The notes beneath the pieces are model-generated. The model did not search any database. It saw only the letters and a program-made list of their open reading frames with translations, and was not told where the DNA came from. This document shows positions 58,423-58,689 of a stretch of 64,000 bases of DNA, piece by piece. Each line of letters begins with the position of its first letter. The stretch's first letter is position 1. Position numbers and translations under genes: made by a program. The DNA comes from Escherichia coli 042. GTDB lineage: Bacteria; Pseudomonadota; Gammaproteobacteria; Enterobacterales; Enterobacteriaceae. The DNA is taken from the NCBI RefSeq assembly GCF_000027125.1, contig NC_017626.1; one strand, given 5' to 3'.

Positions 58423-58689
58423 CTACTGCCAGTCAATGAGATCCTCTGGTGATATCCTATCCTTCTCCATCAATTTGAGGATCTTTTTCATTTTTAACTT
58501 ACGTGCCTTTTTCTCACCAATCTCCTGATAGTATTCTTCCCGCCGTTCCGCTACTACCTTGCGGAACTTCTTCAAGAGTTTGTTCAATGTCTTTATATCA
58601 GTGGTAGCCGCTTCAGCTTGGATTTTTCTATACATATACATAACGTGGAATTCATCAATCATATTAAACCTCTTAGTTTTATCATTCAT
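58423..58689 (-). CDS. Truncated H-NS-like protein (H-NST-like; N-terminal oligomerisation domain only)
   Basis: YRKIQAEAATTDIKTLNKLLKKFRKVVAERREE...ISPEDL aligns by eye with the H-NS N-terminal region [10 protein letters not shown]...LEKLEVVVNERREEE...IDPNELL; no C-terminal DNA-binding motif; SD gaggga. Confidence 0.55.
   Translation of the reverse strand: MNDKTKRFNMIDEFHVMYMYRKIQAEAATTDIKTLNKLLKKFRKVVAERREEYYQEIGEKKARKLKMKKILKLMEKDRISPEDLIDWQ

Follow-up and report, generated by a model that had tools for sequence, protein, structure and literature searches.

An hnsT gene at the right end of an ssrA-associated island of Escherichia coli 042 probably encodes a 79-residue H-NST antagonist of H-NS

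Does a short open reading frame (ORF) in a low-GC island of Escherichia coli 042 encode an antagonist of the host silencer H-NS, or is it half of a decayed hns-type gene? The question was raised for a stretch of 64,000 nucleotides (contig NC_017626.1 of RefSeq assembly GCF_000027125.1), called the window in the following. An earlier note, made from the sequence alone, had described an ORF of 88 amino acids (aa) at positions 58423-58689 as an H-NST-like protein restricted to the N-terminal oligomerization region of H-NS, and had suggested that it might act as a dominant-negative anti-silencer. Our comparisons support this putative function. As the best overall explanation we regard it as probable that the ORF is hnsT, coding for a 79-aa H-NST protein that antagonizes H-NS.

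The product of the ORF contains a single recognizable domain. Pfam searches with the 88-aa form returned only Histone_HNS_N (PF22470, E=2.6e-17), which covered residues 10-85 and positions 1-76 of the 79 positions of the model, and disclosed no match of the hnsT product to the C-terminal H-NS domain. The NCBIfam models of StpA and H-NS matched solely with their N-terminal ~77 positions, and a phmmer search against the PDB aligned the protein without gaps to residues 2-77 of H-NS 1-83 (3nr7, E=5e-6). In the numbering of the 79-aa form, the product is colinear with H-NS residues 1-77. When the C-terminal domains of H-NS and H-NSB were used in tblastn searches, no remnant of a DNA-binding domain was found near hnsT, the sole match being the gene at 49098-49505, and a convergent gene begins 31 nt past the hnsT stop codon. 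Because PF22470 was the only domain, the NCBIfam matches were N-terminal, the 3nr7 alignment was continuous, no remnant was recovered and another gene follows the stop codon in opposite orientation, we concluded that the description as an N-terminal domain without a DNA-binding domain is correct and that the resemblance to H-NS is beyond chance. An AlphaFold model predicted helices at residues 3-18, 23-67 and 72-76 (mean predicted local distance difference test score 79), a layout agreeing with that of H-NS 1-83.

The similarity to H-NS had been judged moderate. In pairwise comparisons it is weak, as the product shares only 27-29% of its residues with H-NS, with Hfp of strain CFT073 and with the full-length paralogue of its own island (27% to the latter), and a tblastn search with the H-NS N-terminus did not recover hnsT in the window at E<=10. 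The relationship is visible only by profile methods and by orthology to H-NST, and by both it is decisive.

To establish orthology, the island IE3 of enteropathogenic E. coli (EPEC) E2348/69 and the serU island of uropathogenic E. coli (UPEC) CFT073 were located as comparison islands. An 80-aa protein of IE3 (WP_000564595.1; YP_002329609) possesses A16, L30, R60 and R63 at the positions published for H-NST (PMC3897749, PMC7074111), and because of this match it was taken as the characterized H-NST_EPEC. The hnsT product is identical to this protein at 64 of 80 positions (80%; BLASTP, E=2e-45; 83% in a multiple alignment) and shares 79% of its residues with H-NST_UPEC of CFT073 (multiple alignment). 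Thus, the H-NST-like identity was corroborated, and the sequence alignments and profile comparisons with the H-NS N-terminal domain and H-NST that the earlier note had proposed (PF22470, 3nr7, H-NST_EPEC) were all significant. The window protein and H-NST_EPEC have the N-terminus MIDEFHVMYMY in common, consist of the H-NS oligomerization domain alone and both contain A16 and L30, which are needed for the activity of H-NST_EPEC. They differ in that R60 and R63 are replaced by K in the window protein, which ends in WQ and does not contain the three-residue insertion (M-A-C) that precedes D68 in H-NST_EPEC, and is therefore colinear with H-NS. The context is also shared, since both genes lie downstream of a DUF6387 gene and an AlpA-like gene for a putative recombination directionality factor (RDF), in AT-rich islands harboring MobQ, TraD and RepL genes.

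The ORF itself is real, its length had been overestimated. Three in-frame ATG codons at 58719, 58689 and 58662 would give products of 98, 88 and 79 aa, respectively, all ending with the stop at 58423 on the minus strand. To compare start codons, the 80 nt located 5' of the MIDEFHV start were aligned for 26 species-representative genomes together with EPEC, UPEC and the window. Conservation is lacking for the ATG at 58689, on which the 88-aa form depends. It is wholly absent in EPEC and UPEC, and in other loci its position is occupied by AAG, ATA or ACA, or it is followed by an in-frame stop; altogether, besides EPEC and UPEC, at least 10 of the 26 other genomes either do not have this codon or have a stop after it. 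The start ATG-ATT-GAT at 58662, preceded at a distance of 7 nt by the Shine-Dalgarno sequence AAGAGG, was kept in 28 of 29 loci (the window, EPEC, UPEC and 25 of the 26 genomes) with L026 as the sole exception. RefSeq annotates a 79-aa protein at identical coordinates (WP_001398332.1, 'H-NS family histone-like protein'), and the EPEC H-NST studied experimentally begins at the equivalent methionine. On account of the conserved start, the RefSeq call and the start of the EPEC protein, 58423-58662 is likely the coding sequence (CDS) of hnsT, rather than the 88-aa form.

Could the gene nevertheless be a decayed hns-type fragment, or a chance ORF? The gene is small, covers no more than half of an H-NS protein and is embedded in AT-rich DNA, which would favor such an explanation. 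This explanation was refuted by the data. In comparison with hnsT of EPEC, 31.5 of 43.7 synonymous and 20.5 of 187 non-synonymous sites differ, giving a non-synonymous rate (dN) of 0.118 and a ratio to the synonymous rate (dN/dS) of ~0.05, with dS saturated. Hence hnsT is under strong purifying selection. A database search yielded 805 homologues at E<=0.001, mostly of 79 aa, from genera including Pectobacterium, Dickeya, Brenneria, Citrobacter, Salmonella, Klebsiella and Yersinia, and a genome scan detected the gene in 26 species representatives. As the identity to H-NS and to the neighboring paralogue is only 27-29%, hnsT is not a recent truncation of the latter. In a published phylogeny, short and long H-NS homologues fall into separate clades (PMC6035254), which likewise speaks against a pseudogene, as does the missing trace of a DNA-binding domain downstream of hnsT. 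Moreover, H-NST is 78-80% identical to its counterparts in IE3 and the serU island, whereas other shared island proteins reach 26-60%, the full-length H-NS paralogue (76%) being the exception. Conservation above that of the island backbone suggests a constraint exerted by a conserved host partner, H-NS.

Within the species, hnsT homologues were present in 557 of 5426 complete E. coli genomes (~10%) and never resided on a plasmid. A megablast search with the target region detected near-identical DNA in 11 complete E. coli genomes and DNA of 80-90% identity in ~500 more, in all cases on the chromosome. In E. coli 503025 (L001, NZ_CP025892.1) the hnsT segment is 99.9% identical and has the fim genes in its vicinity; AbiE, a truncated brxL and a gene with a PLD domain flank it, and the integrase is only partial. 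Because this copy is situated near fim, the element or parts of it occur in differing chromosomal contexts.

A conserved array which comprises DUF6387, the RDF and small ORFs ends with hnsT. The RDF gene is related to the PHROG 'excisionase and transcriptional regulator' (E=1e-11), and its product is 43-51% identical to those of helix-turn-helix (HTH) genes in IE3 and the serU island. For the small ORFs little could be gained from databases: the 98-aa and 116-aa products gave no Pfam match, and NCBIfam and PHROGs offered little for the remaining array. The arrangement, though, is widespread. In 24 of 26 other genomes, the RDF gene was found upstream of hnsT on the same strand, at a distance of 1.1-1.9 kb, homologues of the small ORFs were arranged between them in the same order in most of the 26, and a convergent RepL-like homologue lay downstream of hnsT in 17. 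These neighborhoods comprised flanks of 6 kb, shorter than the 8.9 kb that separate hnsT from the full-length paralogue in the window; an H-NSB gene was within reach in one of the 26 genomes.

In 24 of 29 loci, which stem from many genera, a perfect G+C-rich stem-loop precedes the start of hnsT by 29-39 nt, compared with 0.15 expected from shuffled sequences. There are two unrelated stem types, UUCCCUC/GAGGGAA as in the window and GCCCC/GGGGC as in EPEC, whose stems are invariant and whose loops vary. The type tracks which gene is located upstream of hnsT, and this gene is a different one in EPEC. Similar hairpins, mostly with GNRA-type tetraloops, follow the stop codons of several genes of the array (spacers 59360-59410 and 59710-59786). 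They are not accompanied by a U tract and were not called by a simple terminator scan; between 58.0 and 61.0 kb this analysis revealed no terminator near hnsT and fewer promoter-like sites than in shuffled sequences. We suspect that the hairpins are intercistronic elements affecting mRNA stability or attenuation. The leader hairpin of the window sequesters GAGGG before the ATG at 58689, and a riboregulator masking the Shine-Dalgarno sequence of the 88-aa start was considered. This candidate was down-weighted in view of the missing conservation of the 88-aa start, the presence of similar hairpins behind further genes of the array and the correspondence between hairpin type and upstream gene.

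How might the protein act? By orthology, H-NST would form mixed oligomers with the H-NS of the host; StpA and the Hfp/H-NSB protein of the island are probable further partners. Contact would be made through a head-to-head surface resembling site 1 of H-NS and possibly also through a site-2-like helix-turn-helix. As H-NST possesses neither a linker nor a DNA-binding domain, such oligomers would have fewer DNA contacts, resulting in weaker DNA bridging and silencing of AT-rich genes, i.e., in dominant-negative anti-silencing. Being the last gene of the excisionase-like-led array, hnsT would be expressed together with the excision functions of the island. H-NST_EPEC, when expressed at a low level, interacts with H-NS and relieves the repression of proU and bgl (Williamson & Free 2005, cited in PMC7074111), and it induces LEE, the enterocyte effacement locus (PMC3897749). 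The peptides H-NS1-58 and H-NS56-82 each inhibit DNA bridging by H-NS in vitro (PMC5647153). Like these artificial fragments, the window protein represents an N-terminal part of H-NS without the DNA-binding domain, and it spans both regions; unlike them it is the product of a natural, separately evolving gene with the low identity to H-NS mentioned above. For the window allele, we infer H-NS binding, derepression and co-transcription with the RDF gene from such comparisons.

The residues at the interfaces were inspected individually. Dimerization of H-NS depends critically on R12, R15, L26, L30 and L33 (PMC7544231), of which R12, L26 and L30 are identical in the window protein, while R15 is replaced by Q and L33 by F. 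At site 2, where H-NS dimers are linked by the salt bridges R54-D71', R54-E74' and K57-D68' (PMC7817174), the protein retains R54, K57 and D68, with D instead of E74 and S instead of D71. No variation among H-NST, H-NS and H-NSB is seen at K57, D68, P72 and L75. At position 63, the K of the window protein is the majority state (90 of 113 homologues). Because both interface regions look preserved, we infer that H-NST may enter H-NS oligomers at either of them.

Several observations weigh against this reading. The K at position 60 is a minority state (R in 92 and K in 18 of 113 homologues), and the mutation R60Q in EPEC H-NST lowered DNA binding and LEE induction two- to threefold (PMC3897749). 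The substitutions R15Q and L33F could weaken pairing with H-NS at site 1, and the UPEC case illustrates that a single substitution can inactivate an orthologue. Fold searches did not retrieve H-NS, so that the structural support consists of the alignment and the secondary structure only. Co-transcription with the RDF gene is suggested by spacing and synteny, and the G+C-rich hairpins between the genes of the array might reduce read-through.

The same residues are pertinent to the question of whether the allele is inert or strongly attenuated, its sequence being conserved and its antagonism of H-NS lost. A16V inactivates H-NST, and the inactive UPEC allele carries V16 (PMC3897749). H-NST_UPEC, reported to be non-functional for this reason, is closely related to the window protein and, as in the window, is encoded by an island that also harbors H-NSB, unlike IE3 of EPEC; the K at position 60 affects a site of importance in the EPEC protein. 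However, the window protein exhibits A16, as do the active EPEC protein and altogether 108 of 113 homologues, L30 and most interface residues are kept, and the exchange of R60 for K preserves the charge and is conservative. Together with the strong purifying selection, these data make loss of activity rather improbable.

An opposite effect was also considered, namely that the protein binds the N-terminus of H-NS as a co-repressor of the Hha/YdgT type and strengthens silencing. It is indeed small and helical, and R12, a residue of H-NS required for the binding of Hha, is conserved. With Hha/YdgT and Ler, H-NST has in common that it is a modulator related to H-NS, small or partial in form, whose gene resides on mobile DNA. 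Hha, in contrast, enhances silencing and exhibits no detectable homology to the window protein, which is homologous to H-NS and matched no Hha family in Pfam or NCBIfam, and the 80% identical EPEC orthologue derepresses instead of repressing. A co-repressor is thus very unlikely.

The earlier note had also stated that the island encodes a full-length H-NS paralogue, and this was confirmed. The 135-aa protein matched the NCBIfam H-NS model over positions 1-136 of 137 with 181 bits, under the equivalog cut-off of 211 bits, and the StpA model likewise end to end and below its cut-off. Its identity amounts to 76% with Hfp/H-NSB of CFT073 versus 64% with H-NS of K-12, and it retains L33, unlike the HlpC clade (comparison in PMC7544231). 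By these criteria the low-GC island appears to contain an Hfp/H-NSB-type gene closer to Hfp than to core H-NS.

In the serU island of CFT073 a short and a full-length H-NS homologue occur together as well, and the right-end module with DUF6387, RDF, small ORFs and hnsT is the same. The two genes are ~0.5 kb apart in CFT073 and separated by a DUF6404 gene, whereas in the window TraW-like, DotA/TraY-like and two other genes lie between them. The pairing pointed out in the earlier note is real. It is, however, not new, as a report of 2005 already covered both H-NST accompanied by H-NSB in the serU island and the solitary H-NST of IE3 (Williamson & Free, cited in PMC7074111 and PMC6035254). Among 54 Enterobacteriaceae-associated ROD21-like (EARL) islands, 33 encode a full-length homologue, 14 of these 33 additionally a short one in opposite orientation, and six others a short one only (PMC6035254, Piña-Iturbe 2018).

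The pairing admits an island-local interpretation, in which hnsT is a regulator from the RDF operon that mainly neutralizes Hfp/H-NSB and island-bound H-NS and couples excision to de-silencing of mobQ and traD. The fact that hnsT closes the DUF6387-RDF-small ORF array in 24 of the 26 genomes, which belong to many genera, the GC content of the island (32-42%), which renders it a prime target of H-NS, and the full-length paralogue encoded 8.9 kb away are in line with such a role, and in ROD21 deletion of integrase and RDF altered island gene expression (PMC6035254). IE3 of EPEC and six EARL islands, on the other hand, contain hnsT without a full-length paralogue, so that H-NSB is not an obligatory target, and H-NST_EPEC acts outside its island, its targets comprising LEE and the promoters of proU and bgl on the chromosome. 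We regard a mainly island-local role as possible, though not likely; it is compatible with antagonism of H-NS in general and does not exclude it. Similarly tentative is a more far-reaching model, according to which hnsT would be an excision-coupled de-silencing device: as the obligate last gene of an RDF-led operon, its dosage set by the G+C-rich intercistronic stem-loops, it would be expressed only upon commitment to excision, stripping off H-NS and H-NSB and thereby switching on mobilization. If true, this would constitute a positive-feedback switch common to serU-, EARL- and ssrA-type islands across the Enterobacterales.

The features of the locus are compiled in Table 1. The window is chromosomal DNA, and its region from 35.8 to 62 kb represents a genomic island with ssrA as insertion site, as the GC content falls from ~0.50 to 0.33-0.42 right after ssrA and remains low until ~62 kb, and an integrase gene is situated at the start of the low-GC stretch. 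The right boundary was tentatively placed at ~62.0-62.25 kb by GC content and a flanking autotransporter gene (62281-63873). Direct-repeat searches, and searches with the 3' end of ssrA in which two to three mismatches were allowed, did not recover this end a second time in the window, nor an attR repeat, so that the element may be composite or its right junction degenerate. An Rfam scan of 35-64 kb identified the transfer-messenger RNA (tmRNA) alone.

Table 1. Coordinates of hnsT and further features of the ssrA island in the window
Feature	Position	Strand	Basis
ssrA (tmRNA), integration site of the island	35384..35746	+	ARAGORN (tag ANDENYALAA); Rfam tmRNA, 293 bits
P4-type tyrosine integrase, left end of the island, adjoining ssrA	35871..37142	+	NCBIfam PRK09692, 442 bits
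TraD-like small conjugal transfer protein	41205..41516	-	53-56% identical to TraD genes of IE3/serU
MobQ relaxase	42352..43860	+	NCBIfam MobQ, 260 bits; 58-60% to mobQ of IE3/serU
Full-length H-NS paralogue, 135 aa, Hfp/H-NSB-like	49098..49505	+	NCBIfam; identity to CFT073 Hfp
RepL-like gene, convergent with hnsT	57693..58391	+	42-43% to IE3 'replication/maintenance protein RepL'
3' stem-loop UGACUGGC-AGUA-GCCAGUCA where hnsT and the RepL-like gene converge, overlapping the hnsT stop and the codons just before it	58416..58435	-	read from sequence
hnsT CDS (likely start), 79 aa, H-NS N-terminal oligomerization domain only	58423..58662	-	ORF, PF22470, orthology, RefSeq
5' leader of hnsT with two non-conserved in-frame ATGs (58689, 58719)	58663..58719	-	upstream-sequence comparison
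Stem-loop UUCCCUC-GAAA-GAGGGAA in the leader, preceding the conserved start by 32 nt	58695..58712	-	sequence and fold
Four small ORFs (116, 78, 98, 119 aa) from RDF to hnsT, same strand, spacers of 39-79 nt	58732..60146	-	ORF list
AlpA-like HTH protein, putative excisionase/RDF, heads the array ending in hnsT	60281..60514	-	PHROG, identity
DUF6387-family gene, accompanies RDF in EARL and serU islands	60655..61521	-	39-41% to DUF6387 of IE3/serU

The backbone of the island is shared with IE3 and the serU island (identities: TraD 53-56%, MobQ 58-60%, a lipoprotein 48%, RepL-like protein ~42%, AlpA-like RDF 43-51%, DUF6387 39-41%). With EARL islands it shares the low GC content, an RDF gene with a companion gene of ~850 bp (~843 bp in EARL islands, PMC6035254), MobQ relaxase, TraD, and short and full-length H-NS homologues in opposite directions, and the identities of its H-NST are within the published range of 56.6-98.8%. 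The integrase, on the other hand, is only 31-32% identical to those of the serU island (31%) and of the EARL island IE3 (32%), the integration site is ssrA instead of serU or an Asn-tRNA gene, and a flanking direct repeat was not found in the window. Because of its integrase and site, the island is not an EARL island in the strict sense, but one related to the serU, IE3 and EARL islands by its backbone and equipped with a third integration module.

Some further observations were made on the island. A direct repeat of 83 nt, which includes the inverted repeat GATTGTTCAA.ACAATC, is present at 41622-41704 and 56950-57032, the copies being 81% identical. The former is situated where an oriT is typically found, between mobQ and the traD-like gene, the latter in a 1.4-kb gap upstream of the RepL-like gene; the repeat may be a duplicated oriT or a region bound by a regulator. 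Between H-NSB and H-NST (50325-55150) there are genes of the TraW and DotA/TraY (886 aa) families according to the RefSeq annotation of near-identical strains. This region has no counterpart in IE3 or the serU island and is interrupted by IS100 in strain 503025. Two overlapping divergent ORFs at 38836-40559 encode products of 348 aa, with a TSPPY motif typical of N4/N6 DNA methyltransferases, and 242 aa. They adjoin an annotated DUF3644 gene, are absent from IE3 and the serU island and probably constitute a type II restriction-modification cargo module.

The finding of an H-NST gene as such is already known and ordinary, since the family was discovered in the same species. In surveys, hfp islands of E. 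coli were located at asnW or serU only (PMC7544231), so the ssrA location of an hfp-type island is a small addition to them. Minor new points are the position of hnsT as the last gene of an excisionase-like-led array and the hairpins preceding it. The window adds no new principle: it contributes another A16 allele of the 'active' type that is paired with an Hfp/H-NSB paralogue and associated with a third integration module at ssrA. The significance lies in the family itself, as H-NST proteins let acquired islands override the xenogeneic silencer of the host and can raise virulence gene expression in pathogenic E. coli, as in the case of LEE.
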